From a virus (lineage: Duplodnaviria > Caudoviricetes): a stretch of DNA of 56,910 nucleotides. Under the pieces are notes generated by a model that saw only the letters and a list, made by a program, of their open reading frames with translations, was not told the DNA's origin and made no database searches. The DNA lies in IMG/VR virus record IMGVR_UViG_3300014208_000049, positions 1 to 56,910 of that record. One strand, given 5' to 3'. Of the stretch, positions 1 to 18,277 are shown piece by piece (within the stretch, counting starts at the first letter, position 1; each line of letters starts with the position of its first letter). The position numbers and the translations under genes were made by a program.

Positions 1-175
1 CATCACGCCGACCTGCGATGATTCCCGCATCACGCCGACCTGCGACGATCCCCACATCTCGCCGACCTGCGATGATTCCCGCATCTCGCCGACCTGCGAT
101 GATCCCCACATCACGCCGACCTGCGACGATCCCCGCATCTCGCCGACCTGCGACGAGTCCCACATCACGCCGACA
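1..175. repeat. 27-bp tandem repeat encoding SSQVG(V/E)M(R/W)(E/G/D) on the minus strand
   Basis: Consecutive units of catc(a/t)cgccgacctgcga(t/c)ga(t/g)(t/c)ccc(g/a), no spacers. Confidence 0.95.
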
Positions 176-357
176 ATTACTGCCCCGTAAAGATACGCGA
201 CGGTGTTCTCGCGCAATTCCAAATAGATATTTTCGATGGATCGCTTGAGGGTGATAGGCACCCCCGGGTCGGAGTAAATATGTACCGCCGTCGTCTTAGG
301 GAAAGCATCCGGCAGCGCATCCCACTCGGCTTGATTCTTTACGATGATAGTTTTCAA
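1..357 (-). CDS. 5' part of the origin-spanning 9-aa-repeat protein (continues at 56910..56204)
   Basis: AGGAGG then TTG at 357 reads MKTIIVKNQAEWDALPDAF...VIVGVMWDSSQVG into the repeat, no stop before nt 1. Confidence 0.85.
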   Translation of the reverse strand, partial: MKTIIVKNQAEWDALPDAFPKTTAVHIYSDPGVPITLKRSIENIYLELRENTVAYLYGAVIVGVMWDSSQVGEMRGSSQVGVMWGSSQVGEMRESSQVGEMWGSSQVGVMRESSQVGVM

Positions 358-632
358 TTATTCCTCCTATCGTGTACGGTCATGGCGACACCGGCGGGGA
401 GGGGAGGGGCTGTATTTGCTCGATCCCCATGTCCGCGCCGACCTCGCATTCGTCGCAAGTGCCGGGGCATCCTACCCAATCGTAACAGTCGATCCCTTCG
501 TCCTCTACGGTGTCAGGCATCTTCCCTCCCTTCGAGGTTCCGCAGATGGGGGTGTGACGGTGACAGGGCCGATCGTATTCCCTGTGCTTATGAATCCCCG
601 CGTAAGTCGTGGGACTCACCGCCGGTATCGTC

Positions 633-835
633 CTACTCCCCGACCTCGATCGCCTTGAACGCTTCCCACGCCCCGTCCTTGTCGATATTGTCGAGGTCGA
701 TCACGGGAGCGATCTCGTCCTCGGCCCGCGGCACGGCCTTCTCGCCCTTGATGACCGCCTTGAGCAGCTTCTTCGCCTCGGGGGTCGTCGTCCGAAACAC
801 CTTGCCGTCCTGCACGAAATGAATGCCCTTCGCCA
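633..835 (-). CDS. Small hypothetical protein (MAKGIHFVQDG...)
   Basis: GGAGG RBS upstream of ATG; 3' part of ORF 633..1217. Confidence 0.55.
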
Positions 836-865
836 TACTGATTTCCTCCTTCGGATTTGGTGGTG

Positions 866-1099
866 CTACGACTTCGGTGCGATGTCGTTTTCGTTCCTTG
901 CGATCGCGCTGTTCGCCCACATGACGACTTCCTCCAACTTCGTCAGCGCGAGTGACTGCTCCCGACTCTTCGGCGTGAGCGCCAAGATCGTTGTCGCGAA
1001 CGACTTCGCCTCGTCCCGAATCCTGACGTACCGCTCCTGTTGTGTGCCGAACGGCGGGTGATACGTGTACACCTTGTCCAGTTCCGTCCCCTGCGCCAT
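866..1099 (-). CDS. Acb2/Tad1-hairpin-like protein, candidate cyclic-nucleotide sponge
   Basis: YTYHPP...RYVRIR...SREQSLALTKLEEVVMWANSAIARN resembles the Acb2/Tad1 helical hairpin family; AAGGAGG RBS. Confidence 0.65.
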   Translation of the reverse strand: MAQGTELDKVYTYHPPFGTQQERYVRIRDEAKSFATTILALTPKSREQSLALTKLEEVVMWANSAIARNENDIAPKS

Positions 1100-1213
1100 C
1101 AATTTCCTCCTTCTCCTGCTCTAACGTGGCAGGCGCCGGTGTGTGGTACGTAAAGATGCACGGACCTTTCTTGTTCTCGATCGGGTCGAAGCAACGGTTG
1201 CAGGAGGAGTGGG

Positions 1214-1876
1214 TCATAAGAGATACCCCATCTCTTGCATGAATTGGATCGGGTCTTTATTGCACTTCCTGTTGTTGCATCTCTGACACAGCAACTGGAT
1301 ATTGGAAATATAATTCGTTCCCTTCTGCCCTCCTTCTCTCGGCTTCAGCGGGACGATATGGTCTTTGTGGTATCCGCTGCCCAACTTACCTTTACAAGCC
1401 GCACAGCGTCCCTTTTGGAACTTATAAAGCGCGACCACCTCTTCGGCAGTATGACTTCCTTTCGCGTCCATTTTTCGTCCGTAATAGGAGTGCCAGTATG
1501 CCCTGCATAGTTCAATATTGGCGGCCCTCCATTCTGCCGCGACCCTTCTCTTTCTCTCCTGATTCCTTTCCTCCCACGCCTTGCTGGCCGCATAAGCCTT
1601 TTCTCTGTTCGCCTCAACGTATTTCTTCTGGTAGGCTCTCACCTTCTCCCGATTCGCATCTCTCCACATTTTACTTGCCGCCTTACACTTTTCCTTGTTG
1701 TCTTTTTCCCATTCGGTGTTGCGTTTCCTTATCGACTCTTTGTTTATGCCGTAGTATCCTAATTGGTATTCGTGTTTGCATTTTTTGCACCAATAATCAA
1801 GGCCGTCTATTGCCTTGCTCCTTTTGTGGAACTCTAACGACGGCTTTGTAATGTTGCATTTAGTACAACACTTCAT
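1214..1876 (-). CDS. HNH endonuclease (paralog 1, N-terminal CxxC zinc finger)
   Basis: CAAC...HKDHIVPL...NIQLLCQRCN; ends PIQFMQEMGYLL; TAATG overlap with helicase stop; low GC. Confidence 0.9.
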   Translation of the reverse strand: MKCCTKCNITKPSLEFHKRSKAIDGLDYWCKKCKHEYQLGYYGINKESIRKRNTEWEKDNKEKCKAASKMWRDANREKVRAYQKKYVEANREKAYAASKAWEERNQERKRRVAAEWRAANIELCRAYWHSYYGRKMDAKGSHTAEEVVALYKFQKGRCAACKGKLGSGYHKDHIVPLKPREGGQKGTNYISNIQLLCQRCNNRKCNKDPIQFMQEMGYLL

Positions 1877-3147
1877 TATCGTTCTGGCTCCAATTCGTCG
1901 CTGTTCACATTTACCGCCATATAAGCAGTCCACTCTCTGCCCATTATTACTTTTATTATACCTGTTTGCCCCGCCCTGTTCTTGGCAAGCCTAAGTTCAC
2001 CCTTAGATGGAATTATCTCAATGCCAACATCGCAAGCATGTGAGACTTCCGAGGCATACCGAAAATTAAGCATTCCCTTGCCTTGTTCGCTTACTGCGGC
2101 ATTACTCTGTTGGCTCACCGCTATTACACAAGTATCTACGTCTGCTGCCAAGTTCTGCAACTCCATTGCGATTAAGGCCATGCGCTCATTTACGTTCTGT
2201 ATTCCTCTTACCTGTACGTTCTGGATAAAGTCAATAACGCAAACGTCCAACTTTCCATACGTCGCCTTGATGCCTCGCGCTCGCCGGCAGATGTCGTAAA
2301 GTTCGATTTCTTGGCGAAAGGTATGCAACGGCATCTCGGCAAGAAGCCCCACGGCCCCCTCAACCATGATCTCCTCGCGCTCGGTGAGCCTGCCCCGGAA
2401 TATCCTATTGGATGCGATTCCCAAATAGGCCCCTGCAAGTCGTGCGAAAAGCCACCGTTTCGGGATCTCGGCCGAAAAGTAGGCCGCCCTGCCGCCCCAC
2501 AATAGGGTCTGGACGACGCATTGGACCGCCAGGAGCGTCTTTCCTCCCGAGGTAGGTCCTCCTATGGCCCAAAGGAAAGAGGGCACCAGGCCGAACGTGG
2601 CGCGGTCCAGTGCCCTAATTCCGGTCGGGGGTCCGAGGGATTCCATCTTCGCGTTCCTGCGGATCATCGCCATGAACTCCTCGGCCTGATCCGGGGTGAT
2701 CCTGCCGTCCTCTGCGGCCCCTCCGATCTCGCGAACCGTTCCCAAGAAGTCCCTGACCGCCGATACACCCCCTTCTCGGACCAATTCCTGAATCCGGCGC
2801 TTCGTCCTGCGCTCCTTGAGCGATGCCACGGCCTCCATGATCGACGTAGGCGGGATGACGATCGGGTTCGGCCTCGCGATCAGGTCCGACATCGTGGCCC
2901 AGGAATCGACCCTCCCGCGGCGGGCAAGGGCTTCGCCTACGGCGCCGGGGTCAACTGCGCTGCCGGCGACTCGCACGTCGAGAATCGCGTTGAAAATGTC
3001 GCGGTTATCGATGGAAATGAAGTCCTCGGGCGACATGATCGAGACGATCCGCTCGGCCTCGCTGGCGCTTCGCATGGCGGCATCAAGCAAAGCGGCCTCG
3101 ACTTCGAGGAAATTCCTGGATTCGACGATGGGGGCGGGGGTCGTCAC
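1876..3147 (-). CDS. dnaB: DnaB-like replicative helicase
   Basis: DnaB-type N-terminal domain, Walker A GGPTSGGKT, VIDFIQ, SQ and AKNRAG motifs. Confidence 0.9.
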   Translation of the reverse strand: MTTPAPIVESRNFLEVEAALLDAAMRSASEAERIVSIMSPEDFISIDNRDIFNAILDVRVAGSAVDPGAVGEALARRGRVDSWATMSDLIARPNPIVIPPTSIMEAVASLKERRTKRRIQELVREGGVSAVRDFLGTVREIGGAAEDGRITPDQAEEFMAMIRRNAKMESLGPPTGIRALDRATFGLVPSFLWAIGGPTSGGKTLLAVQCVVQTLLWGGRAAYFSAEIPKRWLFARLAGAYLGIASNRIFRGRLTEREEIMVEGAVGLLAEMPLHTFRQEIELYDICRRARGIKATYGKLDVCVIDFIQNVQVRGIQNVNERMALIAMELQNLAADVDTCVIAVSQQSNAAVSEQGKGMLNFRYASEVSHACDVGIEIIPSKGELRLAKNRAGQTGIIKVIMGREWTAYMAVNVNSDELEPER

Positions 3148-3926
3148 CGCAGTTCCTCCAACTCTCTCCCCGCGGTATCCGTCCCTCGCGGCCCCCTGCC
3201 GCTACCGTCCGGCGGCGCGTTCAAATACGACTCGAATTTCGTCCCGAACAGTGTTTCCGGGCGAAGATATTCCTCCATGCTGGCATTGCCCGTCCACTTC
3301 GCAACCTGGTGGTCGATCACCTTTCGGAACTCTTCGATGCCGAATCCTTCCTTCCACCTTGCCGCGATGTGCCGCCTCGTTGCGCGTGACGTAGCGGAGA
3401 ATTTCTTCCCCGTCTTTTCGTTCAAGTATTCGATGATGTCCTTGGCCGGAATGATGTCCTCAAGTTCGCGCTCGTCCTGCTTCGGCGACACCTTCTCCTT
3501 CGGTGCCTTCTTTGACGCCTTCGCGTCCATCGGGATCTCGTAGTATTCCGCGAATTCTTGGACGATGGAGAGCTTGGGCAGGGTCCGCAGCGTGTTGGCG
3601 ATGCCGCATACCTGCTTGGAGTTGGAGGGTACAAAACTCGGTTCGTTGCGAAGCCCCTTGACGATCCAGATGACGGGACGTTCATAGCGTACCCAACCGG
3701 CGGCGATCAGGGCGTCCAGCCCTGCGTCGATGTCGGACGGCTCCGAGGTCTTCATGCGCTCGTACAGCGTCGTCTGGTAGAAGGTGAAGATGCACGGAAA
3801 ATTGCAGTCCCTTGATGTCCTGAGATTAAAGAATACGAGTTGCGTCACGGGGTCGAACGATTGGAATTCCGGGTCATCCCAAATGCACGAATAGATGGAC
3901 CGATACTGTCCCTTTTCAGGAGGCAT
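3144..3926 (-). CDS. Phage replication initiator with conserved phage C-terminal domain
   Basis: IIEYLNEKTGKKF...YLRPETLFGTKFESYLN (Phg_2220_C-like); directly upstream of DnaB. Confidence 0.85.
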   Translation of the reverse strand: MPPEKGQYRSIYSCIWDDPEFQSFDPVTQLVFFNLRTSRDCNFPCIFTFYQTTLYERMKTSEPSDIDAGLDALIAAGWVRYERPVIWIVKGLRNEPSFVPSNSKQVCGIANTLRTLPKLSIVQEFAEYYEIPMDAKASKKAPKEKVSPKQDERELEDIIPAKDIIEYLNEKTGKKFSATSRATRRHIAARWKEGFGIEEFRKVIDHQVAKWTGNASMEEYLRPETLFGTKFESYLNAPPDGSGRGPRGTDTAGRELEELR

Positions 3927-4112
3927 CAGGTGATCTCCGGGGGAAAGAAAATGTGCGCGGGCTTCAGGAGCGGAGGGTGCGGCCCCACACTCTTGAAAGG
4001 GAACCGGGAGGTTTCCTGCTGCCCACGCACAACCGGGGAATCGTATTTCATTTTTGCTCCCGCACGAGCGTCTATTGGAACTCTATGGTATGCGATGCGA
4101 TGAGGATGTCAA
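3926..4112 (-). promoter_or_regulatory. Sigma70 promoter, structured leader and 41-aa uORF coupled to Rep
   Basis: TTGACA(4112-4107)-16-TACCAT; uORF 4051..3926 ends TGATG on the Rep start; nested stems 3932-4042. Confidence 0.65.
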
Positions 4113-4121
4113 GGTGAATCG

Positions 4122-4871
4122 TCATCGGCCGGCGGCGCGTAATGCCTGCTCGGTCCACGCACGGATTCCCGGAAGATTGAACATCTCCTTCGTCGCCCCG
4201 AGCAACTTGCCGACCTCTATCGAAATCTGCACGGCGCCCGTCGTTTTCTCTTCGTCCGCGTCCTTCACGGTGAAGGATATCTTCCCGTCCACGGCGGCCT
4301 GAAGCAACGCCTTCGGGTCGATCACCTTGTACTTCCACGCGGGGACGAAGTTGCTCCCCGCCAGTTCCTCCTTCACGGTCGGCAGCGACACCTGCGGGAC
4401 TTGGATCGGCGCGGCGAGAACCTGCTCCGCAAGGGCCGCGTGGCCCTGCTGTTCGAGGACTGCGGCGCGTTCTACCTGGCGCGTCTCGGCCTTCTTGCGT
4501 TCCTCCTCTTGCGCCAAGCGTTCGCGCTCACGGCGGATGTCCTCCTGGACGGCGTTGTACCCCTCCATCTCGCGCTTGATGATCCCCTTCGCTTCCGTGA
4601 CGGGCTTGAGCGCATCGGCCTTGGCTTGCGTGGCCGCCTTGTGCGCGGCGTTCGCGGCCTTGCAGATGGGGTCGAACGTGGCGGATATCTTCTTTTCAAG
4701 TTGGTGACAGCACAGGAATAGTTCGTTCGCCTTGGCGAGCGTGTCCGAATCCTCCACCTTCAGGGCGCGGGCCTGATCGGGAAGGGTAAGGGCTTCATCA
4801 GCGGCCTGATTGGCGACTTCGATCTGCTGCTCCGTTGCGGCTTCTCCGAGGACAAGTTTGCGGGTCATCAC
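4122..4871 (-). CDS. Coiled-coil phage protein in the recombination module
   Basis: Long Ala/Glu/Lys helical ORF with AGGAG RBS; family (Gam/Gp157-like?) uncertain. Confidence 0.6.
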   Translation of the reverse strand: MMTRKLVLGEAATEQQIEVANQAADEALTLPDQARALKVEDSDTLAKANELFLCCHQLEKKISATFDPICKAANAAHKAATQAKADALKPVTEAKGIIKREMEGYNAVQEDIRRERERLAQEEERKKAETRQVERAAVLEQQGHAALAEQVLAAPIQVPQVSLPTVKEELAGSNFVPAWKYKVIDPKALLQAAVDGKISFTVKDADEEKTTGAVQISIEVGKLLGATKEMFNLPGIRAWTEQALRAAGR

Positions 4872-4908
4872 GTCTCCTATTCGTTTGCCTGATTGTGTGC
4901 CGTCTTCT

Positions 4909-5592
4909 TCACAGCAGATACCCCATCTCCTGCATGAACTGAATCGGGTCTTTACTCCATTTTTTTCGGTTACACGTAGGGCAAAGTAATTGAACGTTTT
5001 TGTCTTCGTTCTTGCCGCCTTTGGCTATAGGGACCACGTGGTCAAGGTGGTAGCCAGTCTTCCGCAGATCGGCTTTGCAGACGGGGCATTTGCCCTTCTG
5101 TAGCATGAGCAACTTCTGGATTATGCCCTTGGATAACTTCCCTCCGTTCGCTTTCTTGCGGGCGCGATGATTTTGAGTGGCAATGTTCTTTTTATCTTTA
5201 TTCTTTAGCCTGTATCTTTCCTGAATCTCCCTGTACTCTGCTGGATGAGATTTGTACCATGCAGTAAACCATGATTTTGCTTTCTCTTTATTTGCTATGC
5301 GGTATGCAGAAGTATTGGCCTTGCTCCTCTCTGGGTTATCCTCTCTCCACTTTGCGCTCCTGGCTTTTATTGTCTCTCTATTCGCTGCGTAATAATTCGA
5401 GCTGTAAGTTTTGGCTTTCTCAACAAGTTCGTCACGTGAACAGGTATTTTTGTGTTTGTAGTTTCTGGATATGCCAATGCCTCTGCATTTTATTGAACAA
5501 TATTTATATTCCCTGCTCCCTTTATTCTTCCTTACCGTGACGCCACCGCAAATACAACATACATATTCCCTATACATTGTCTGCCTAAGCAT
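4909..5592 (-). CDS. HNH endonuclease (paralog 2, N-terminal zinc finger)
   Basis: CPVC...HLDHVVPIAKGGKNEDKNVQLLCPTCN; ends PIQFMQEMGYLL. Confidence 0.9.
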   Translation of the reverse strand: MLRQTMYREYVCCICGGVTVRKNKGSREYKYCSIKCRGIGISRNYKHKNTCSRDELVEKAKTYSSNYYAANRETIKARSAKWREDNPERSKANTSAYRIANKEKAKSWFTAWYKSHPAEYREIQERYRLKNKDKKNIATQNHRARKKANGGKLSKGIIQKLLMLQKGKCPVCKADLRKTGYHLDHVVPIAKGGKNEDKNVQLLCPTCNRKKWSKDPIQFMQEMGYLL

Positions 5593-6238
5593 TACTTGAC
5601 TTCCATCTGTTTATTTGAAGTGCCGCCAAGAAGACGGACCGCAAGGAATACATATTGTCCGCGCTGACATGTTCTATTCGTGGATTCCCCCCATCGCCAT
5701 CCAAGTACACGATGCAACCCTCTGGATACACATTGTCAAGACCCACGACAGAGTTGCCTATGAGTTCCCCGTATGCAGAAACCTGTACTTTATCGCCGGA
5801 TCGCTTCTCTCCGCTTTTGAGGTCGCAAACGGTGAATCTCCCGTCGATTAGCCCAGGGAGGTCTGGCGTTCCTGCGAACCGCCATGAGTTATGCCACATT
5901 GGTACTTCTGCTAACTGGACCACGGACTTGAAAGATGTTATTTTTACGAACTTCTTGTAGCTCTCAAGATACGCCGCGATCCCCTCGCCCAAGGTACTCT
6001 CGTCTAGCGTCCCATGCTCGAACCACGCGATCGCTTGGTGGACCCATGTGCCGACCTGCATCTTGAAATCCGCGTCCGAATTGCGCGGCCCGTACTGCTG
6101 AATCCCCTCGGCCTTGAGGATGCCCGTCACCGACGAAAGAATCTCGCCACCCTTGAGTCGGTACGTGTGCGTCTCTTCATCGAACGTAAGTTCGGCGTGA
6201 TGCGGCTGAAAAACAATCGTGTCGGGGATGGAGATCAA
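5585..6238 (-). CDS. PD-(D/E)XK family exonuclease
   Basis: FDEETHTY, SVTGIL, GTWVH, FAGTPD, DLKSG and QVSAY motifs. Confidence 0.85.
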   Translation of the reverse strand: MISIPDTIVFQPHHAELTFDEETHTYRLKGGEILSSVTGILKAEGIQQYGPRNSDADFKMQVGTWVHQAIAWFEHGTLDESTLGEGIAAYLESYKKFVKITSFKSVVQLAEVPMWHNSWRFAGTPDLPGLIDGRFTVCDLKSGEKRSGDKVQVSAYGELIGNSVVGLDNVYPEGCIVYLDGDGGNPRIEHVSADNMYSLRSVFLAALQINRWKSSNA

Positions 6239-6329
6239 AGTAAAAGCCCCCGGAGATCGTCGCGCCCGGACCAGGGGCTACCCACCCGACAACCTCCCTG
6301 TAGTGAATTTCTCCGGGGGCAGGGGAATA

Positions 6330-6509
6330 TCATGTTGCGGCCTCCTTATCTCGCTTCAATTTCTCCATCGCCGCCTCGCGCAAGAAGTGGGAAATCGCGA
6401 TGCCCTGCTTCGCACACCATCGGGCGATGGATCTGTATTCCGCATCGTAAAAGTTCACGCTATGCGTCCAGTTCTTGCGAAGTTCTTCGGCTATGCGCGG
6501 GCGGCCCAT
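6330..6509 (-). CDS. Ribbon-helix-helix-like DNA-binding protein, 59 aa (not in ORF track)
   Basis: MGRPRIAEELRKNWTHSVNFYDAEYRSIARWCAKQGIAISHFLREAAMEKL; TAATG coupling to HNH stop. Confidence 0.7.
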   Translation of the reverse strand: MGRPRIAEELRKNWTHSVNFYDAEYRSIARWCAKQGIAISHFLREAAMEKLKRDKEAAT

Positions 6510-7183
6510 TAGAGTAAATACCCCATCTCTTGCATGAACTGGATCGGGTTCTTGTTAAATTTCTTCAGGTTGCAGGTAGGACATGTCAGTTGCATATTGG
6601 CATCCTCGTGCTTCCCGGCAGGTTCACCCGTGCGCGGTTTCAGTGGGACTATGTGGTCAAGATGGTAGCCGGTTTCCTTGAGGTCGGCCTTGCAGACAGG
6701 ACATCTTCCTTTCTGTACCTTCCACAACTTCTGAATGATGTCCTTGGAGAGTTTTCCGCCTTTATTTTCCAATGCGATCCGATCGTACTTTCTTATGCGT
6801 CTTTCCTCGCGATGTTCTTCGCGGTATCTTTTAACTTTTTCAGGGTTAGATTTTGCGTACTCCCTTGCCCGTGCCCTGTACTTCTCTGGATCGGAGGCGT
6901 ACATATTTCTCCGATACTCCGCCATCGCCTCTTTTCGTTTTAGATTGTACGCGGAGCAAGTAGCCAACATTCTTTCCCTATTGGCGGCTCTCCACGCCAA
7001 GGTTATTGCCTTGTCTTTGTCGGGATTGTTTTTACGCCACGCCCTGCACTTTTCCCTCTCTTGTTCAAGGTGTTCGGAGCGATACTTTTTGCTGTATGCC
7101 TTGATCTTGTCTGGGTTGTTGGCCTTCCATTTTCTGCACCGTTCTCTTTCGCGTTCCCTTCTCTCTTCTGGCGTCATAGCCAT
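6509..7183 (-). CDS. HNH endonuclease (paralog 3, RNA-leader associated)
   Basis: HLDHIVPL...GEPAGKHEDANMQLTCPTCN; GGAGG RBS before ATG 7183. Confidence 0.9.
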   Translation of the reverse strand: MAMTPEERRERERERCRKWKANNPDKIKAYSKKYRSEHLEQEREKCRAWRKNNPDKDKAITLAWRAANRERMLATCSAYNLKRKEAMAEYRRNMYASDPEKYRARAREYAKSNPEKVKRYREEHREERRIRKYDRIALENKGGKLSKDIIQKLWKVQKGRCPVCKADLKETGYHLDHIVPLKPRTGEPAGKHEDANMQLTCPTCNLKKFNKNPIQFMQEMGYLL

Positions 7184-7316
7184 CAAAGCCTCCGTCCGCC
7201 GGGTGTGACGGCACGCGGCGACAAAGGACGCAACGCTAGCGCGTGGCATCCACCGGAGGCTTTCCCGCTCGCTGTTTCGTAAGCACGCATGGGCCGTCAC
7301 CCTGCGAGAATATGAT
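7184..7316 (-). ncRNA. Conserved structured RNA leader, copy 1 (133 nt)
   Basis: 42/43-nt identical core with copy 2, compensatory change in closing stem, G-U pairs form only on the minus strand. Confidence 0.7.
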
Positions 7317-7322
7317 GTGCTT

Positions 7323-7351
7323 ACGTTACGCCGCATCTTCGGGATTGTCAA
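7323..7351 (-). promoter_or_regulatory. Sigma70 promoter for leader copy 1
   Basis: TTGACA-17-TAACGT. Confidence 0.7.
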
Positions 7352-7628
7352 GGAGTATTCGGTCAATTTCGGCACATAGCAGCGCCCCGGCAATCACGAG
7401 ACTCCTTAGCCTTCCGTGCTTCCTGCGCTTGTCGTGTTCCTCGACGAACGGGAACGCATCGCTGTCGCCGTATTCGTACACGCTCACGCCCTGAATCCCG
7501 TTGACTGCGTAGCACGCTGCGGCGAGGGCCAGTTCGTTGTCCGTGTGGCAACGGTCGTGCTCGGGATCGAATCCCTCCACGGTGATCTGCCGATCGCGTT
7601 CCTTGGTGATAAGTTCAATGCCGGTCAT
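7326..7628 (-). CDS. Conserved phage helical protein (MazG/dNTP-pyrophosphatase-like fold possible)
   Basis: ERDRQI..EG...EHD...ELALAAACYA...LVIAGALLCAEIDR is a recurrent phage family pattern. Confidence 0.55.
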   Translation of the reverse strand: MTGIELITKERDRQITVEGFDPEHDRCHTDNELALAAACYAVNGIQGVSVYEYGDSDAFPFVEEHDKRRKHGRLRSLVIAGALLCAEIDRILLDNPEDAA

Positions 7629-8014
7629 GACTTGGACTCCTTCTCGTACCCCCGGACCGCATCTTTGATGCCTTCGGGCCATTCGGATTCAGGTATAAAC
7701 TTGCCGAGCGATTCCCTGATGTGGTCCGCGTTGGGTTTGCCGATCACGTTCAACCGCAAGGGACCCGGCGCCCCTCCTTCGGGCCATTTGTCTCCCGCGA
7801 AGAGGACGAGGCGTTGTTCGACATCCGACACTTCCCGGTAGCACCTTTCGAACACTTCCTTGGGCGACCAAGAAACGTGCCCGTCCTCGTAGCGGACACG
7901 GTAGCCGTGCGTTTCGACAGCAAGACACGCACGTCCTTCTGATTGGCAGAAACGGGTATATTCCATCGGTTCCGCCGCGATGATCTTCGTGCCGATGTAA
8001 ATCTTCTCGGTCAT
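7625..8014 (-). CDS. YIGTK...GYxVxYxDGxxSWSPKxxFE domain protein, candidate anti-defence sponge
   Basis: Motif seen directly; this domain is commonly fused to Tad2 (DUF2829) and Gp49-family sponges. Confidence 0.55.
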   Translation of the reverse strand: MTEKIYIGTKIIAAEPMEYTRFCQSEGRACLAVETHGYRVRYEDGHVSWSPKEVFERCYREVSDVEQRLVLFAGDKWPEGGAPGPLRLNVIGKPNADHIRESLGKFIPESEWPEGIKDAVRGYEKESKS

Positions 8015-8262
8015 TTCGCCCTCGCCTCCTTCACGTGGGACTCCACGTATTTTATGAGATCGTCCACAGTCTTGACCTTCTCGGCGTCGTCGTCATCGTA
8101 GATGTCGATGGCGAATTCGTCCTCCACTTCCATCGCGAGTTCCATGATGTCCAAGGAGTCAAGGCCGATGTCCTCGATGAGCGTATTCTCGCGGTGAATG
8201 TCGGCCACCGACCGGTCGGACTGACGAGCGACCAGATGGATGATGGTTTCTTCCGTGGTCAT
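8011..8262 (-). CDS. acpP: Acyl carrier protein
   Basis: 83 aa, acidic, DIGLDSLDIMELAMEVEDEFAIDI...KTVDDLIKYV with the phosphopantetheine Ser. Confidence 0.9.
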   Translation of the reverse strand: MTTEETIIHLVARQSDRSVADIHRENTLIEDIGLDSLDIMELAMEVEDEFAIDIYDDDDAEKVKTVDDLIKYVESHVKEARAK

Positions 8263-9239
8263 TTCTTCGCACCTGCGGCGGCGATGTTCTTCACGAGGGC
8301 TTCGATCAGCGTGGACGCCTCCCGCTTGGTGAGGTCCTTGATCGACGCGATGTTCTCGGCCTTGGCGAGAATGACGCTCGCGTACTCATGCTTCTCGTCG
8401 TCCGTCGTCAGGCCGAGTTCCTTCAGGCAGATGGCGATCTTCTTCACCTGCGGCTCCGTGGCGAGTTCGCCGGTTTCGGTGCCGGCGGCCGACTGTGCCG
8501 CTGCGGCCCCTGCCGGGGCACCGTTGCCGGCGGACTGCGCGGCGGACTGTGCGGGCTTCTGCGTTGCGGGTTGCGTCTGCGTCGGGGCGCGGAATCCCTG
8601 CATCCCCTCGGGGACGGGAATGACGGGGGCCTTGCCCATTTCGTAGGCGGGAAGCGCATCCTCGTCGGCCGCGAATTCCTCGGGGAGATACAGGCGTCCG
8701 AGTTCGTCGGGGAAAGCGTCACGGTGAGCCTGTGCGATGGGCACCTTCCGGATCATGGTTCCCGGCTTTGTGGCCCATTGCTTGTTGATAGTCCCGTCGC
8801 CCTTGCGCCCGACGTACTCGTTGAACGCAACTTCGATGCGGTACGGCGTTGACCGGTCCCGACGGTACACCTCGCACCATCCGCCGAGGATCTGCTCCGT
8901 TTCCAGGTAGAACGCGCCCTCGCGGTACGTGATCTTCTTGTCGCCGTCGAGGACGATGATGCCGGCCTTGAATCCGTTGTACGTGGGGTTCTTCTCGGCC
9001 CGCTTGATGAAGACCTGATACGCGACCACCATCGAAGCCGGTTCGCTGCCGTACTTGATGAGGAACGCTTCCTTCATGAACGGGTTCAACTCCTGCGACT
9101 TGCAAAGTTCCATGAAGAAGTAAATCTCCTGGTCGTTCGCCTTGTCGCAGATGTACTTCTTCACGATGTCCGACGTGAGGGTCGGAACGTATCGCGTTAC
9201 TCCCATGCCCGTCGCTTTCGCCAGTTCGTCTCCCGCCAT
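8259..9239 (-). CDS. bet: Bet/RecT-family ssDNA annealing recombinase
   Basis: LCKSQELNPFMKEAFLIKY, GGWCEVYRRDR, WATKPGTMIRKV...RDAFP. Confidence 0.9.
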   Translation of the reverse strand: MAGDELAKATGMGVTRYVPTLTSDIVKKYICDKANDQEIYFFMELCKSQELNPFMKEAFLIKYGSEPASMVVAYQVFIKRAEKNPTYNGFKAGIIVLDGDKKITYREGAFYLETEQILGGWCEVYRRDRSTPYRIEVAFNEYVGRKGDGTINKQWATKPGTMIRKVPIAQAHRDAFPDELGRLYLPEEFAADEDALPAYEMGKAPVIPVPEGMQGFRAPTQTQPATQKPAQSAAQSAGNGAPAGAAAAQSAAGTETGELATEPQVKKIAICLKELGLTTDDEKHEYASVILAKAENIASIKDLTKREASTLIEALVKNIAAAGAKK

Positions 9240-9475
9240 CTTCCTGCTCCTTTCAGTTCGTGTTGGAGTCCGCGATTTGCAGCTTGATCTTCCACTCACC
9301 GCACGCTTCGGTCGGCTTCGGACTCGGCCAGTACGTCGCCGTGACCGGCCCGGTCGGTGTTCCGACGAGCGACGCCTTCGGCGGGTAGCGGTAGCACTTG
9401 CCCTCCGGCGTGACGTTGACGAGTTTCATCTTGTAGTGAAAACAGTTCGCGCATTGGCGCAAGGGATCGGTCATC

Positions 9476-9646
9476 TCACGCCACCTTCTTGAATTCGCGC
9501 ACCAGGCGTTTGATCTCGCGCCGGAGCAGGGCCGAAAGGGTATTCAACCCTTCCGTCTTGGCGATCAGGAACAGCGTGCGCTTGTCCTTCATCGTCACGC
9601 CGCGGATCGCCAACACCACCATCCTTTCCTTACCGGTCACTCGCAC
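9476..9646 (-). CDS. Small RHH-like DNA-binding protein (not in ORF track)
   Basis: LAIRGV...LFLIAKTEGLNTLSALLRREI; AGGAGG RBS before GTG. Confidence 0.55.
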   Translation of the reverse strand: MRVTGKERMVVLAIRGVTMKDKRTLFLIAKTEGLNTLSALLRREIKRLVREFKKVA

Positions 9647-10392
9647 GTTGCGGCACCTCCTGCTGATGATTTATTTCTACGTAGTAGTAGTACGTGACGG
9701 CGCCCATGCACAGCACCAGGAGGACGGCGAAGTAGACCACGATGCCCTTGCCGAGCGGGGTCAGGGAGCGCCACAATTTACAGGACATTCAGCATCTCCT
9801 CCGTCTTGTGCGCCGACACTCGGGCGGTCATGCGATCGGCTATCCCTCGTCCGAAAACGAATACCGTGATGAAAACGGTGCAGAAAAGAGTGCCGATTGA
9901 AACGAAAAGATGAGCGAGACTTACCAACAGCAAGAGCACCGAATTTACAAGACTGCCGGACCGGTCCACCAGTTCTGAAAATTCCTGCTTCGGATTCACG
10001 ATTCCCTCCCTTAGACCGCCGCTCTGGCACGCATGTTGTCGATCTCCGCGAGCCTCGCGTCGTTCATCTGCTGGATCGTTGTACGGCCGATGGAAATCTC
10101 CCGCGGTTCCCCGCAATCGCATAGGTACGTGGCCGCCAGGATCTCGTCGTGCTTGCCGCGAGTCACACCGGTCATGCGGGGACGCAAAGGCTCGAAGCGT
10201 TTGCATGCGGGGCAACGGCGGGTGGTCATCCCTTCGCCTCCTTCTTCGGCCATGCCGTCACCCCGTGGATTTCGATCAACCCTGCCCGGAAAAGAATCTG
10301 TGCCGACAGGTCTTCTTTCGGCGACAGATAGTACCCCGTCTTCGGGCATCGGTTGATGCGGGCGAGGAGCTTGGATTGTGCGGCGGAAAGGG

Positions 10393-10728
10393 TCATCGGT
10401 CCTCCCTCATCAGGATCTTGTAATACGCAAGCATCGTCTTCCCCTCGCTCACGTCGAACAATTTCTCCGGACCGCATCCGTGCGGGCATTTCAAGTCCTC
10501 GACGGTCCCATAGATGCGGCACAGAAACGGACGGACCTCGTAGATCGAACAGCCGCCGTCGCCGATGTACGGGCAACCGATACCCTCGGCCAACACCGGC
10601 TCGGGAATCTTCGCGTATTCGCTCTTGCCGAAAGGCACGGGGCCGCAACAATCGGCGCAACCGGGCTTGCACTCGAACACCGGGATGCGATCGTACAGTT
10701 CGTGGTACTTGTCAACCATGCCGCTCAT
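10393..10728 (-). CDS. YkgJ-family cysteine-cluster protein
   Basis: CKPGCADCC...CPY...CSIYEVRPFLCRIYG. Confidence 0.85.
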   Translation of the reverse strand: MSGMVDKYHELYDRIPVFECKPGCADCCGPVPFGKSEYAKIPEPVLAEGIGCPYIGDGGCSIYEVRPFLCRIYGTVEDLKCPHGCGPEKLFDVSEGKTMLAYYKILMREDR

Positions 10729-10965
10729 CCTTCTCGCGCTTCTTGATCGCGTCCAGAATCTCGCACCATTCTCCGTCGGAAATGTTGTCCAAGGGCCAGC
10801 GGCATTTCAGGAAACGGATCTCCATACACCCCGAGTTGCCGACCTTGTAGGCGACCACGTAATCGGCTGCGGCGACACGATCAATTCCTCCCGTGGTGGC
10901 GTCTATAAGAGGGGTCCATCCCTTGACGGCTTTTATTGCGATGACTCTCACGTTGGGAAACGACA

Positions 10966-11169
10966 TCATCCCCTCCCGTGAACGTGGTCGTCGTGCGTAT
11001 GATGCGCGTGGAAACCCTTCTCGTGCGCTTCCACCGTCAACGTGCCGCCGACCTTGGCCGCGAGCGCGTTCAACTCGGCGAGGATTTCCTTCTCGGTGCC
11101 GACCATGCCGCGAGCGTTAGTCTTGAGCGAACCGTCGGGCATTATCTGGACGATAAGTTTGGATGGCAT
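10966..11169 (-). CDS. DUF2997-like small protein
   Basis: IVQIMPDGSLKTNARGMVG pattern; context with DUF1257-like gene and AAA ATPase; His-rich tail. Confidence 0.55.
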   Translation of the reverse strand: MPSKLIVQIMPDGSLKTNARGMVGTEKEILAELNALAAKVGGTLTVEAHEKGFHAHHTHDDHVHGRG

Positions 11170-11459
11170 GGTCATCTCTCCCTGAAGTAATTGAGTACGA
11201 ACGGTGTCAGAATCCATGCGGCGCACCATCCGATTGCGAACCCCTTGAATATGTCAGTATGAATGAATTCCATCACACGCTCCTTATGATTCCAAGTACG
11301 ATGATCGCCCGGAAGATGTCTATCAAGAGAAACATCGGCCATCCGAACAGGTTTATCGCGAAATTTCCAACCTCTTCTGAATTGAGATCAAGATCCCACG
11401 CGACCACGTAGGCAATTCCAATAAACATGTAGGCGATTGCGTAAAGTATATACGCCATG

Positions 11460-11771
11460 TCACACCCTCCTGTTCACGAGCGTCATGGTCTGCGTCTTCT
11501 CGTCGAACGACTGGATCGCGTACCCGCGGGATTTGGCCCAAGACTTGACGCCGATCTTCGCATATTCCATCGTGATCTCCGTGAGGCCCTGAACGCCGCG
11601 TGCGACGGTGTAGGCGCCGCCGTAGCCCTTGGAGAACGTGATGCTGCGGTTGTCCCGCGTCCCGACGATCGACTCGCCGCGAGACTTGACAGCGTAGCCC
11701 AAGGCGTCAAGGGCCGCGCCAAGGTGCTCGGCGTCGGTGAGATTCGTTGTGATACGGGCATCGCAAGGAAT
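11460..11771 (-). CDS. DUF1257 (Ycf35)-like protein, probable ATT start
   Basis: TNLTDAEHLGAALDALGY...ITMEYAKIGVKSWAKSRGY; GGAGG 9 nt upstream of ATT. Confidence 0.6.
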   Translation of the reverse strand: MPCDARITTNLTDAEHLGAALDALGYAVKSRGESIVGTRDNRSITFSKGYGGAYTVARGVQGLTEITMEYAKIGVKSWAKSRGYAIQSFDEKTQTMTLVNRRV

Positions 11772-12364
11772 TTTATTTGCCTCCCTTCGTACCGGCGAGG
11801 AACCCGGTGAACACGCCATTCTTGTGCGTTATCTCGTCCAATCCTCCGTCCGAATCGTAGTAGAACAGGCGGCGTTCGGCGGGGAGAAGGCCCTCGCGGG
11901 TAAGGCTTTCGACCACGGCCTCCGCGTCATTCGTGACGGACATATTCCCCAAGTTCCGATCAAGTATCACCAGTGGTTCACCGGGCACGTTCTTGACGAT
12001 GGAGAAATCGGATCGGGGACTCATTTCTTCACCTTCCTGATCGGCGTGACCTTGCGGGAGACGCGGAGGCCGTCCCAGTCATTCGGGAAGATACACATTC
12101 GGAATGAACTATATCTACTCCATCCTCCCGATTTGGTTAATTTCTTGATGTCGGTCATGCACCCGCAGCGCAACTTGAATGGTCCGTTGTCGTCGAGTTT
12201 GTAGGTGACTTTGTACGGCGGCTTGGGCATCTCACCAAAGAACCTCGTCATGCTGCTTACGTGCGGGGACCTCGACCCCCCTTCTTCGTGTTCGTATACG
12301 ATCTCGTTGTTGTCGTCGCCTGCTTTACGCTTGCCGGTTATGCTAACAACGATGGATTTCTTCA

Positions 12365-13333
12365 TCACGCCTCCCCTTCCGGCTCCGACATGATCTTCCG
12401 CCGGCCCATGCCCGTGAGGGCTTCCTCTGCCGCACGAACCGCCTCGTCCGCCGACTCCTCGATCGCCTTCTCGATGTCGTTGAGCGATGCCTCGGAAATC
12501 CCCACGGTTTTGCGCGAATTGCCCTCGGCCGCCGTGAGGATTCCGCGCAAGATTCCGACCTGCTGACGGAGCACTTCGTCGCCCATCACGTTCATGGATT
12601 CGACGCGGCCCATGACTTCCACGGCCGATTCGATCATCTTCTCGGGGATCACGCCGCCGCGAGCGACGACCTTGGCGATCTTGCCGACTTTCTCGCTGAA
12701 TTCCTCGCGCAATTCCATGACCATCGACTTGACAATGGACTTCACGGCCTCCGTCTCGGCGGCGATGCCTTCGGTGCTGGCCGCATCCTTGGGCGCTGAG
12801 ATGGCGTAGACCGACCAGGACAGCCGGAACTTCTCCTTGGCGGCATCAGGAGCGGGGTACTCGCTTTGAAGACGCTGTAGGGCCGCCTGAGCCGCCTCCG
12901 GGGTATGCGCGGCGTCCTTCAGGGCCTTCTCCAGCACGGGAAGCATGAGCGTCTTGGTCGCCTCGTAATTGGCGACGAAAATGGCGACCGCGCCGTCGAA
13001 TCCCTCGCGGATCTTCTTGAGTTTGACGATCAGGTCGGGCAACTTGTCCGATGGGACGTACCGGGCGCCGCGGACGAAGGGGAAGGGAAGCGAATGCCAT
13101 TCGACTACCCGCTTCGCCTGCCGGACGGTTTCCATGATCTCGTCGAACGACTCCTTGGGGAAGAGGCGATGGGAGCCGAGACTGAGCGCCCGCTGAACTT
13201 CCTTGCTGTCCTCGATGCCGAAGTCCTGACACCGAATCTGAGTGCGGCCCGACCAGAGTCCGATGTCGAGGTCCACGACGCTGCCGTTGAGGAATAAATC
13301 CGACCATCCTGGGGCCTTGCTGTTCTCTGTCAT
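12365..13333 (-). CDS. DUF3150-like protein
   Basis: LDIGLWSG...SLGSHRLFP...SLPFPFVRGARYVP...EYP pattern. Confidence 0.6.
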   Translation of the reverse strand: MTENSKAPGWSDLFLNGSVVDLDIGLWSGRTQIRCQDFGIEDSKEVQRALSLGSHRLFPKESFDEIMETVRQAKRVVEWHSLPFPFVRGARYVPSDKLPDLIVKLKKIREGFDGAVAIFVANYEATKTLMLPVLEKALKDAAHTPEAAQAALQRLQSEYPAPDAAKEKFRLSWSVYAISAPKDAASTEGIAAETEAVKSIVKSMVMELREEFSEKVGKIAKVVARGGVIPEKMIESAVEVMGRVESMNVMGDEVLRQQVGILRGILTAAEGNSRKTVGISEASLNDIEKAIEESADEAVRAAEEALTGMGRRKIMSEPEGEA

Positions 13334-13404
13334 GATACCCTCCCGCACGAAGGTTGATGTGATGTTGTCATACAAATGCCATACGCGCTATTCGCTGTCA
13401 AGGA

Positions 13405-14922
13405 TTATTTTCCTGACCCGCCGATCATCCTCTGCCCTACGTTGACTGCCTTCTCCTTCACGGTCGATGCGAACCGCGCCCGGGACGATGCCCATTCGCG
13501 GATCGCCTTGATCTTCTCGCCGGCCGTGACGGACAACGGCGTGGTGGCGACCGCGGCATCCATCAGGTCGGTCATGGTGATGTCCCGGCCCTCGTCGAAG
13601 GCATTGAACATTGCCTCTTTTATGATGCCCTCAATCTCCGATCCGGTGAATCCGTTCGTGGTGAGCACGGGGACGCAATCCACCGTAATTTTCTCCGCGA
13701 GCGCATCGCGTTTCCGCGACTTCAGGTGGATCTTGAATATCGCTACTCGCTCATCGTCGTTCGGGAGATCGACCGCGAATAATTCGTCCCACCGGTGCTT
13801 CCCCAAGAATTCAGGCGGCAGGGCGGTCACATCGTTTGCGGTCGCTACAAGGAACGCGCCTTTTTTGCGCTCGACCATCCACGTGATTAGGGTGCCAAAA
13901 ACACGTTTTGTCACGCCCGAATCTCCGGAGCCGGAACCACCTGATCCTGCAAGCGATTTGTCAATTTCGTCACACCAGACAATGCAGGGACTCATGGCAT
14001 CGGCGAGCTTCAATGCGTCCCTCGTCCTGCTCTCTGATTCCCCGACCAGCGAATTAAATAATGATCCGATGTCGAGCCGAAGTGTTGGGACTCCGAGTGC
14101 CGTACCGAATGCTTTTGCGCTCAAGGATTTCCCTGAACCAGGGACGCCCACGATCAGGATACCCTTCGGACTCGGCAGCCCGTATTCCTCCGCCTCCTTC
14201 GTGAACGCCCGTTTGCGCTTCGTGATCCATCCCTTGAGCACGTCCAGCCCCCCGATGGCGTCCAGTCCGCGAGGGTCCGGGTCCACGATTTCGAGCAGGC
14301 CCGACTTCTTCACGCCGGCTACCTTCTCCCGGTAGATGATCTCGGGGCAGAACTTCCCCGATTCGACGATCGACAGCGCGAGCGCGTTCTCCGCCTCCGT
14401 AGTCGATAGTCCTGAGAGTGCGCGTAAAACGTCCTCGGCATCCCCGTTGAACTTCTTCCCCGCGGACTTGGCGATCGACTCCGCGATGCTCGTCAAATCG
14501 GCCTTCGAGGGGAGCGCGTAGTCGGTCACGACGATGAGTTTTTCGAGCGTAGGGTGCGGCCGGAAAGACGGCCCGACGATGATGATGCACGAACCTTCCG
14601 ACGGCGCCCATGTGAGCAGGTCGCGCAAGGCTCGCGGCAGGATCGGGTCACGGTCGAACGGAAAATTGGCGAGGTCGCAAAACATATAGACCGTGTTCGG
14701 AAGGCGTTGCGCGAGGGCGGCGACCGGATCTTCCGTGTTGGCGATGGCCTTCGTCGCGGGGAAGATGTTCTTCATCCCCTCCGTCGCGGTCCATTGAACG
14801 AGGGCCTTCCCCGCTTCCTTTGCGGCTCCGAGTACGTCCGCGCCGATGCGTTTTTCCTCGGCTGTCTGGACGGCTATCCCCGGAAACGCTGCCTTGAAAT
14901 AATTTATGAGTTTCTTTTTCAT
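13405..14922 (-). CDS. AAA+ ATPase (Ycf46-like)
   Basis: IGGLDVLK, GVPGSGKSL, WCDEIDK, ATAN...LPPE, GFTGSEIE. Confidence 0.9.
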   Translation of the reverse strand: MKKKLINYFKAAFPGIAVQTAEEKRIGADVLGAAKEAGKALVQWTATEGMKNIFPATKAIANTEDPVAALAQRLPNTVYMFCDLANFPFDRDPILPRALRDLLTWAPSEGSCIIIVGPSFRPHPTLEKLIVVTDYALPSKADLTSIAESIAKSAGKKFNGDAEDVLRALSGLSTTEAENALALSIVESGKFCPEIIYREKVAGVKKSGLLEIVDPDPRGLDAIGGLDVLKGWITKRKRAFTKEAEEYGLPSPKGILIVGVPGSGKSLSAKAFGTALGVPTLRLDIGSLFNSLVGESESRTRDALKLADAMSPCIVWCDEIDKSLAGSGGSGSGDSGVTKRVFGTLITWMVERKKGAFLVATANDVTALPPEFLGKHRWDELFAVDLPNDDERVAIFKIHLKSRKRDALAEKITVDCVPVLTTNGFTGSEIEGIIKEAMFNAFDEGRDITMTDLMDAAVATTPLSVTAGEKIKAIREWASSRARFASTVKEKAVNVGQRMIGGSGK

Positions 14923-15446
14923 ACCTTGCTCCATTCCCCGAACGGCTTCATCGGCATCAGGAGTCCGTCGCCCCCGTCGAAGGTGAACGGGGCCTGGTAC
15001 ATCGGGTTCACGTTCGGGCCGATCTTGCAGTTCGGCAGGGCCTTCAGGATCAGGAGATATGCGAGTTGGTAATGCGAGTTCCCGACGGCGACGGGTTGCA
15101 TGGGCGTCACCTTGCCGGTGCCGTCGCAGTCGGGGCACGGATGTCCATCGCAGTCGGGGCATTCCTCGTGCCTCACTTCCCCATCGCCGTCGCACTCTGA
15201 ACAGTCCACCGTTTTCACCTTCGCCAGTTCGATGTCGGAGAGCGCGAACCATGCGGGCGGGTCGGCGTAGGGGAACAAGTAATCCGTGCTCAGCGCGCCA
15301 TCCCTTTCCGGCACGTCCGCAAGGCGCGGGACGCGGGCGATGATGTGACCGTTCGTGGCGTAGGAATACTCACCTTTCGACCACGGGTGAAGGTTGATGC
15401 GCGAACCATCGGCAGCGGCACAGAACTTCTTGAGAGTTTCGATCAT
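14919..15446 (-). CDS. Phage protein with DnaJ-type CxxCxGxG zinc finger
   Basis: YATNGHI; CSECDGDG, CPDCDG, CPDCDGTG; GLLMPM. Confidence 0.7.
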   Translation of the reverse strand: MIETLKKFCAAADGSRINLHPWSKGEYSYATNGHIIARVPRLADVPERDGALSTDYLFPYADPPAWFALSDIELAKVKTVDCSECDGDGEVRHEECPDCDGHPCPDCDGTGKVTPMQPVAVGNSHYQLAYLLILKALPNCKIGPNVNPMYQAPFTFDGGDGLLMPMKPFGEWSKV

Positions 15447-15534
15447 CGTATTCTCCCTCCGCACAGGGTTTAAGGTTGTATGACAATACGTTTACTATAT
15501 ACGATACAGCGTTGTCAAGCCCTGATTTCGATCC

Positions 15535-15867
15535 TCACCGCGTACTCCTCGGCTTGCCCTTTTCTTGTGTATAGTTCCACGTGATCCGCTTTGATCCGTC
15601 GTCGATGCCGATCTCTGTTGCTATCTGATCTCGGCACGCCTTGAAACTACGCTGCAAGTTGTCTCCGTCGAATCCTCGCGGGGCGATGCGGGTGAGCGTG
15701 ATCGTATAATTATCGTGTCCCTTGATCGCGGCGCGGTGATTGTACAGTCCTATTTTTACGGCGTCGTGTTGCTCCTTCCTGCGCTTGTTTTTCTTCGACC
15801 AATGCTCATGCCACGATGAATTCGCTTCGCTCTCCGTGCGTATCGGCAGCGTGACGGTGAGGGTCAT
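15535..15867 (-). CDS. RusA-like Holliday junction resolvase, C-terminus possibly frameshifted
   Basis: SEAN...HW...ITLTRI..DGDNL..SFKACRD....GIDD. Confidence 0.7.
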   Translation of the reverse strand: MTLTVTLPIRTESEANSSWHEHWSKKNKRRKEQHDAVKIGLYNHRAAIKGHDNYTITLTRIAPRGFDGDNLQRSFKACRDQIATEIGIDDGSKRITWNYTQEKGKPRSTR

Positions 15868-18110: not shown

Positions 18111-18243
18111 CAATACCCCCGTCCGCCGCATGGTGTCGGCCTGACGACGACAAAGGAGACTGGCACGGGCGCACCATCTCCACCGGGGATTCCGTTCGCT
18201 GTTTCGTAAGCACGCATGGGCCGACACCCTGCGAGAATGTGAT
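18111..18243 (-). ncRNA. Conserved structured RNA leader, copy 2 (133 nt)
   Basis: Same length, core and fold as 7184-7316; GGTGTCGGCC/GGCCGACACC stem. Confidence 0.7.
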
Positions 18244-18249
18244 ACAAAT

Positions 18250-18277
18250 ATGGTACCAATTTGGGGGTTCATGTCAA
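18250..18277 (-). promoter_or_regulatory. Sigma70 promoter for leader copy 2
   Basis: TTGACA-16-(TGn)TACCAT. Confidence 0.65.

Follow-up and report, generated by a model that had tools for sequence, protein, structure and literature searches.

The 56,910-bp IMG/VR virus record IMGVR_UViG_3300014208_000049 (the whole of which was analyzed and is referred to here as the window) belongs to an uncultured groundwater phage, and an identical contig is found inside a metagenome-assembled genome of GTDB. Two HNH endonuclease genes of this phage, A and B, are each preceded by a conserved, structured element of 133 nt, which extends to the ATG from a point just downstream of a promoter-like site. We favor, with somewhat better than even confidence, the interpretation that this element is a cis-acting translational lock belonging to a promoter-leader-HNH cassette. 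According to this interpretation, the element would be the 5' untranslated leader of each HNH mRNA, and transcription from the sigma-70-like promoter would probably start at the first conserved base. An internal anti-Shine-Dalgarno (anti-SD) segment would pair with the Shine-Dalgarno (SD) sequence, and the 5'-terminal AUCA would pair with UGAU over the start codon. A second long-range contact of 7-8 bp, which is copy-specific and is referred to as the P1 core, would connect the loop region of the first hairpin with the loop of the SD-proximal hairpin, and it could either clamp the locked fold, as a kissing contact or pseudoknot, or nucleate an alternative helix of 13-14 bp, P1, and thereby make the leader bistable. 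The net outcome would be low, gated synthesis of a potentially toxic nuclease, and the lock might be opened by constitutive leakiness, by a switch or by coupling.

The components of the two cassettes are as follows.

7323-7351, minus strand: promoter-like site of copy A (TTGACA 7351-7346, 17-nt spacer, TAACGT 7328-7323)
7184-7316, minus strand: leader A, 133 nt, from the probable transcription start to the base before the ATG (model R1, 169.8 bits)
6509-7183, minus strand: HNH endonuclease gene A, 224 amino acids (aa) (Pfam PF01844, 33.0 bits; PHROG 1035 and 2118)
18250-18277, minus strand: promoter-like site of copy B (TTGACA 18277-18272, 16-nt spacer, TACCAT 18255-18250, TG before the -10 box)
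18111-18243, minus strand: leader B, 133 nt (model R1, 162.7 bits)
17556-18110, minus strand: HNH endonuclease gene B, 184 aa (Pfam PF01844, 42.5 bits)

Model R1 is a covariance model of the window's leader, and the gathering cut-off for PF01844, which both proteins exceed, is 21.4 bits. In copy A, 6 nt follow the -10 box before ATCAT begins at 7316, and the ATG is located at 7183-7181; in copy B, 6 nt likewise precede ATCAC at 18243, and the ATG is located at 18110-18108. Both leaders open with the shared sequence ATCA(T/C)ATTCTCGCAG and extend for exactly 133 nt to the ATG, with an SD (GGAGG or GGGGG) 5 nt 5' of the ATG in the two copies. An earlier sequence-only reading of this DNA had reported these coordinates, the 6-nt gap and the exact leader length, all of which are correct on the minus strand. 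The copy A promoter overlaps the final codons and the stop (7328-7326) of the upstream gene 7326-7628. A looser promoter pattern, TTGACA-N15-19-TANNNT, was found at 4 sites in the window against 0.64 expected, a number reached in 0 of 100 shuffles, and all 4 sites precede genes in the correct orientation. The two sites other than those of A and B, of the form TTGACA-N16-TAnnnT, are located at 4085-4112 (minus strand), before the gene at 3144-3926 (minus strand), and at 22489-22516 (plus strand), before the gene at 22523-23110 (plus strand).

When the two copies were compared, the 5' 52 nt of the leaders were found to be 94-96% identical, and a 43-nt core (alignment columns 10-52) was identical at 42 of 43 positions; a 27-mer from this core occurs 2 times in the window against 0.00 expected from 100 shuffles. 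In sliding 30-nt windows, identities reached 29/30 in the 5' leader and 16-23/30 in the remaining leader, 8-15/30 just upstream of the transcription start, 0-16/30 in the N-terminal coding part and 18-25/30 in the HNH domain, and fell to background directly after the stop codon. Therefore, the best-conserved part is non-coding, and the duplicated unit consists of the promoter hexamers, the leader and the gene. Since this conserved unit spans promoter to stop codon in two unrelated genomic contexts, it was copied along with the gene, which bears out the earlier proposal of a module in which both RNA copies directly precede HNH genes. Judged by this sequence comparison, promoter, leader and gene are one cassette that was duplicated inside the phage.

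We see next to no probability that the leader instead codes for an N-terminal extension of the HNH protein. Over 71-74 codons upstream of the gene the HNH frame is stop-free, with in-frame ATGs close to the -35 box. However, this stretch has 62-63% GC and few stops in any frame, three 1-nt indels put the copies out of frame with each other, the 43 invariant nucleotides lack third-position variation, and a conserved SD and ATG occupy the corresponding position in each copy. A conserved antisense open reading frame (ORF) was rejected as well, on the basis of the three 1-nt indels and of plus-strand ORFs that differ between the copies.

The consensus fold of the leader was obtained with RNAalifold on the two copies, which by itself returned the SD-sequestered fold; a seven-helix model results when the closing stem proposed in the sequence-only reading is written as a pseudoknot. 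Its elements in copy A, followed by those in copy B, are given below.

7286-7306, minus strand: hairpin hp1 of copy A, CGCAGGG.../...CCC-A-UGCG
7293-7299, minus strand: 5' strand of the P1 core of copy A, UGACGGC, in the loop and top of hp1
7270-7285, minus strand: putative hairpin hp2 of copy A, UGCU-UACGAAAC-AGCG, invariant between the copies
7254-7263, minus strand: anti-SD of copy A, AAAGCCUCCG, complementary to 7185-7194
7226-7251, minus strand: hairpin H2 of copy A, which differs in sequence between the copies and keeps its pairing
7196-7221, minus strand: hairpin hp4 of copy A, UCGCCG/CGGCGG
7206-7212, minus strand: 3' strand of the P1 core of copy A, GCCGUCA, in the hp4 loop
7181-7194, minus strand: SD region (CGGAGGC, 7194-7188), spacer and start codon (7183-7181) of HNH A
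18213-18233, minus strand: hp1 of copy B
18197-18212, minus strand: hp2 of copy B
18155-18181, minus strand: H2 of copy B
18123-18150, minus strand: hp4 of copy B
18220-18226 and 18134-18140, minus strand: P1-core strands of copy B
18184-18190 and 18115-18121, minus strand: anti-SD and SD helix of copy B

In the consensus fold, the helix formed by the 5'-terminal AUCA and UGAU (7316-7313 with 7185-7182 in copy A) crosses the start codon, the SD pairs with the anti-SD (AAAGCCUCCG in A, AAUCCCCG in B), and hp1, hp2, H2 and hp4 sit between these two contacts. All 45 of the 45 pairs in the seven-helix model form in both copies. Twelve pairs vary and none of them is broken, 6 being changed on both sides (3 in H2, 2 in the anti-SD:SD helix and 1 in the P1 core) and 6 to wobble; when the partner strands were slid by 1-3 columns as a control, 34-49% of the positions paired, with 0-1 double changes. 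H2 has 10 pairs, 3 of which changed on both sides and 3 on one side to wobble, and the anti-SD:SD helix, predicted at 7-10 bp in both copies, carries 1 wobble change in addition to its two double-sided ones. The G-U pairs are present on the sense strand only. The single difference in the 43-nt core (A/T at column 24) is mirrored by T/A at column 115, within the P1 core that links the top of hp1 to the hp4 loop, UGACGGC:GCCGUCA in A and UGUCGGC:GCCGACA in B. This code is copy-specific, because the 8-bp duplex loses stability, from -13.9 to between -8.5 and -9.9 kcal/mol, when the strand of one copy is paired with that of the other.

The modeled anti-SD:SD and AUCA:UGAU pairings are conserved and compensated between the copies, from which we infer a locking function. 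The position of the leader, which runs from the probable transcription start to the ATG and includes the SD, is also in line with such a function. These results agree with what had been claimed from the sequence about the near-identical core and its one compensated difference, about internal hairpins that keep their pairing but not their sequence (as in H2) and about G-U pairs confined to the coding strand. The cis-regulatory reading favored there fits as well, with the SD and AUG paired in the consensus fold and two compensatory changes in the anti-SD:SD helix. The closing stem proposed there retains its compensated pairing, but the same pairs can equally be a kissing contact of two hairpin loops or one of two alternative folds.

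The compensated changes were found both in the P1 core and in the anti-SD:SD helix, and therefore the two pairings either coexist, in a kissing or pseudoknot clamp, or alternate, in a bistable switch. When forced, the P1 core extends to a helix of 13-14 bp that displaces hp1 and hp4. The locked and P1 folds are 4-7 kcal/mol apart in both copies with the opposite preference (-63.4 and -56.8 kcal/mol, respectively, in copy A; -49.4 and -53.4 kcal/mol in copy B). The leader might thus be a true switch, a riboswitch or a protein-responsive element, in which the balance between the locked and the P1 fold responds to a ligand, to the HNH protein or to another protein of the phage or host, and translation is turned on or off accordingly; we regard this as possible but unlikely. 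In its favor, the two folds that share the compensated P1 core are close in energy with the preference reversed between the copies, and the invariant 43-nt stretch, including the hp2 loop UACGAAAC, is conserved beyond the needs of base pairing. However, no Rfam riboswitch was matched, no set of homologs outlines a binding pocket, the two folds differ in energy by no more than the error of the model, and a pseudoknot or kissing fold that holds both pairings explains the compensations without switching. In its fullest form, to which we likewise give only a small weight, the leader would be a self-contained bistable RNA device in which the kissing contact between the first and last hairpins propagates into the 13-14-bp helix and a signal sets the fold. 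The signal, which would time nuclease synthesis through the choice of fold, could be a factor of phage or host origin, the nuclease, or a small ligand that binds to the invariant 43-nt core. Two further candidates for the RNA were rejected: an intrinsic terminator or attenuator at H2, as merely UUUGU follows the stem, and a group I intron or ribozyme, as there was no Rfam match.

Alternatively, translation of the HNH gene may be coupled to an upstream ORF, whose possible extents are as follows.

7183-7290, minus strand: possible 35-codon upstream ORF of copy A, starting at an invariant AUG and ending with a UGA that shares bases with the HNH AUG (UGAUG)
18110-18217, minus strand: possible 35-codon upstream ORF of copy B, with start and UGAUG end as in copy A

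Translation of this ORF would open the locked structure, and the ribosomes would then start again at the overlapping UGAUG. The frame that begins at the AUG (7290 and 18217) spans 35 codons in both copies despite the frame-shifting indels that lie between, and a weak SD-like GGGUG is located 7 nt 5' of the upstream AUG. However, this SD-like stretch and AUG are paired inside hp1, the peptide is conserved solely where the nucleotides are invariant, and the HNH frame is likewise open over the whole leader. Furthermore, when the variable part was shuffled, the frame was open in 62-66% of the trials per copy (about 0.66 for A and 0.62 for B), and because of this frequency we rank the coupling as a minor rival and consider it decidedly unlikely.

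Several observations weigh against the lock. There are only two sequences, from one genome, and the result of the shuffle control (13/500) is the floor of that control. The alignment of the variable middle, which holds the three 1-nt indels, is not unique, and the near-identity of the 52-nt core could partly come from gene conversion between the copies. In copy A, the SD has an unpaired probability of 0.0 in the ensemble and the single-sequence fold is more stable than shuffles (z = -2.40), whereas in copy B the SD is merely partly paired in the ensemble and the minimum-energy fold is not more stable than shuffles (z = +0.13). The promoters are another such point. The sequence-only reading had assigned a TTGACA promoter to each gene, and the hexamers are indeed present in both copies, but a strict promoter scan called copy B alone (10/12 matches) and missed copy A, in which the -10 box has 3 of 6 matches. 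In addition, the only promoter-like site is upstream of the whole lock, unlike the promoters of the T-even phages, which lie inside the structure.

It is quite improbable, in our view, that the conserved stretch acts as DNA, either as an operator bound by the nuclease, resembling the autorepression of I-TevI, or as a tract for recombination or gene conversion by which the two copies would stay similar. Such a role would be consistent with the 52-nt near-identical block that begins at the promoter, with the RecT and exonuclease encoded by the phage, and with the binding of I-TevI to an operator that resembles its homing site near its own promoter, as described in PMC2988022. However, the conserved block is downstream of the promoter hexamers and does not overlap them, and neither compensatory changes 90 nt apart nor sense-only G-U pairs are expected for a duplex-DNA site or a conversion tract. 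Among the sequencing runs listed for it, the stretch was found in two DNA runs from separate groundwater studies and in no RNA run, and in these two the leaders do not differ from those of the window. In run X2, from the second study, one contig joins 6485 to 7415 and omits 929 nt, which correspond to the whole of cassette A. The shorter side of this joint is only 36 nt, and the joint hints weakly that some genomes carry the cassette and others lack it. Across positions 500-20000 of the window, run X2 contains a mosaic population of the phage, with joints that omit or replace 4907-5993, 6485-7415, 1456-2006 and other blocks, and several of the contig joints fall at HNH genes.

The leaders matched no family of Rfam 15, either at gathering thresholds for the whole window or at E <= 10 for each leader, apart from one noise match to HIV_PBS (15.8 bits) at the latter cutoff; in this respect the sequence-only reading, which had taken the RNA to be undescribed, was right. 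A tRNA-Leu gene (anticodon TAA; 54678-54761, minus strand) is the sole Rfam match in the whole window at gathering thresholds. No wider family was found in the R1 searches of viral records. When R1 was run on the window and on 44 loci of HNH relatives, only the two window copies were found, with the next best score at 9.8 bits, and there were 0 matches in the 37 whole viral records that carry HNH relatives. No homolog of the leader was found at 39 IMG/VR and 7 GTDB loci that encode HNH relatives, and blastn gave no match among INPHARED phages. Exact-word scans, which miss diverged copies, gave 0 matches each in IMG/VR for a 27-mer, a 22-mer, an 11+9 two-block pattern and a 19-mer, and 36 loci for a 15-mer, with a top R1 score of 16.6 bits. 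In GTDB genomes, the 27-mer matched the window's own contig alone and the 19-mer matched 69 stretches, of which 67 were new loci scoring at most 22.3 bits; in JGI metagenomes, an 18-mer matched 14 loci, the best at 17.5 bits. Three metagenome contigs with the 18-mer GTGCTTACGAAACAGCGA align to R1 over ~135 nt at 15-17 bits (L088 410-544, L094 897-1031 and L089 6083-6217, minus strand), and these alignments are taken as chance. As far as these searches reach, the leader family consists of two copies in one phage.

The upstream regions of HNH relatives contain a different conserved leader of ~93 nt, with the consensus GUCAGGACAGG...UUACUGAC..., which starts ~6 nt after a -10 box (TAAAAT, TATAAT or TACAAT). 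It folds as a three-way junction in which a small hairpin presents the SD region in its loop, and the loop of the second hairpin has the complementary sequence. A covariance model built from 9 of these leaders, R2, matches 12 of 37 other viral records with HNH relatives at >= 43.9 bits, with one more weak match, and gave 0 matches to the window at E <= 0.1. When 16 copies were aligned to R2, 94.7% of the cells paired (the alignment being fitted to the model), and 19 of 26 pairs, including 6 of 7 kissing pairs, showed double-sided changes; 0 of 500 shuffles reached the observed values. A pattern scan of IMG/VR for this leader found at least 119 loci, in which the added copies precede further HNH genes, and the leader is likewise located before a homing endonuclease of the NUMOD3/phrog_314 type, which has no relation to the HNH clade. 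The R2 leader has no match in Rfam or in cultured phages. Its copies were located as follows.

L011 1324-1416; L016 1324-1416; L018 1342-1434; L019 1396-1488; L023 1324-1416; L025 172-264: R2 leader copies
L033 1327-1419; L028 951-1044; L038 404-499; L168 1266-1360 (minus strand); L202 2784-2877: R2 leader copies
L212 6578-6672 (minus strand); L218 9828-9922 (minus strand); L238 6308-6400; L253 2246-2338 (minus strand); L265 8449-8543: R2 leader copies

The window leader resembles the R2 family in several ways. Both start about 6 nt after the -10 box, directly before this HNH or its relatives, both are predicted to fold into a junction of several helices and to pair an internal segment with the SD region through a copy-specific, compensated sequence, and both can be present in two copies in one phage, with a nuclease gene after each; for instance, one 34.8-kb record has the R2 leader twice, each before an HNH-type gene. 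In contrast, the models do not cross-match, and the window leader exceeds the R2 leader by 40 nt and includes an additional long hairpin, its anti-SD lies in a small internal hairpin, and its compensated loop-loop contact excludes the SD itself. Simpler leaders were also observed before HNH relatives (L029 1372-1443, L036 about 1150-1260, L039 1270-1350 and L041 about 540-634), in which a stable hairpin is followed by a YCUAACCAA-like motif and then by the SD; in L029, CUCUAAC faces GUUAAGGAG. Such leaders may represent reduced versions of the kissing-loop (R2) leader.

A comparable principle has been described for T-even phages, where, according to PMC2988022, RNA structures that sequester the ribosome-binding site regulate I-TevI, I-TevII, I-TevIII, segB and mobE. 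As predicted for the window, a cis-acting leader structure pairs with the SD of a homing-type endonuclease gene, and this is thought to limit the nuclease (PMC2988022). However, the T-even structures are single local hairpins with an embedded late or middle promoter, from which a shorter transcript escapes the lock, whereas the window leader has 6-7 helices over 133 nt and a long-range, copy-specific contact, and shares no sequence similarity with them. The sites detected in the window are upstream of the whole leader and none is inside it, as far as the sigma-70-type sites covered by the scan are concerned. From these comparisons, the window leader appears to share its working principle with the R2 family and with the T-even hairpins, and by sequence or model it is a member of neither.

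The second role that the sequence-only reading had considered for the RNA, a ribonucleoprotein (RNP) partner of the HNH protein acting in trans as a guide or scaffold, is very improbable. A structured RNA upstream of an HNH-domain gene is also the arrangement of the HEARO/IscB omega-RNA, and the only support for such a role comes from two features, namely that the RNA is strictly linked to the HNH gene in both copies and that the 8-nt code is copy-specific. IscB proteins consist of RuvC plus HNH domains. In contrast, a Pfam search of HNH A and B found an HNH-type domain only, in proteins of 184-224 aa, with no RuvC or further Pfam domain. Furthermore, the leaders do not match HEARO in Rfam, the copy-specific code pairs within its own leader, and the RNA is the 5' untranslated region of the gene, containing its SD and AUG, with no terminator between the RNA and the ORF. 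The R2 leaders, which are analogous, serve unrelated nucleases; that such a leader heads two unrelated nuclease families speaks for an expression cassette and against a protein-specific guide. Given the domain content of the proteins and the lack of a HEARO match, assignment to an IscB-like RNP family is excluded.

Long-range pseudoknots that sequester the SD and coupling structures are known from bacterial operons, for example in the coupling of L35 and L20. The likeness to the translational lock proposed here is that a distant segment pairs with a downstream SD and that translation depends on an upstream event, but the window leader has no relation to this type of coupling in sequence or context.

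The genomic setting is that of a phage in which leftward transcription at 0.6-23 kb covers replication and recombination genes, among them the following.

8259-9299: RecT gene, leftward module
5585-6238: exonuclease gene, leftward module
1876-3147: DnaB-type helicase gene, leftward module

The rightward half of the window encodes a P22-like portal protein along with structural proteins. The leftward module contains four dispersed HNH paralogs (PF01844), at 1214-1933, 4909-5592, 6509-7183 (A) and 17556-18110 (B). An N-terminal Cys-rich segment is found in the first two, which overlap their upstream genes, but not in A and B, as had been noticed from the sequence; the leaders of A and B are intergenic. 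The insert GEPAGKHED, which had been given as shared by A and B, is exact in these two only, but its length is common to the paralog at 1214-1933 as well, and the paralog at 4909-5592 alone is 5 residues short at this position. The A and B proteins are 54% identical; the closest relative off the contig is 45% identical, and the closest among cultured phages 33%. No close relatives of the phage were found in IMG/VR with the RecT protein as the query. The HNH genes are most likely free-standing homing endonucleases dispersed in the replication and recombination module. Tandem repeats of 27 nt, in 5 overlapping copies, occur at the left end of the window (1-189), and at the right end (56204-56893) there is a repetitive ORF of MRGSSQVGV... 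units; these may be terminal or wrap-around repeats of the contig.

Taken together, the leader most likely represents a new and uncatalogued variant of the way in which phage homing endonucleases are known to be controlled. These enzymes must be made in small, well-timed amounts, which T4 achieves by simple hairpins. The leaders of A and B and the kissing-loop leaders of their relatives suggest that uncultured phages use larger structures for the equal task, with several helices and a copy-specific pairing code, which move with the nuclease gene. Such cassettes would be compact, portable translation locks that are absent from Rfam, and none was found among the papers listed in our literature searches. 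If the leader is a true switch or bistable device, it would represent a new class of regulatory RNA on mobile nuclease cassettes and could serve as a marker for mobile nuclease genes in metagenomes. As a translational lock, it would be one more, structurally distinct example of a widespread and uncatalogued control of phage homing endonuclease genes.

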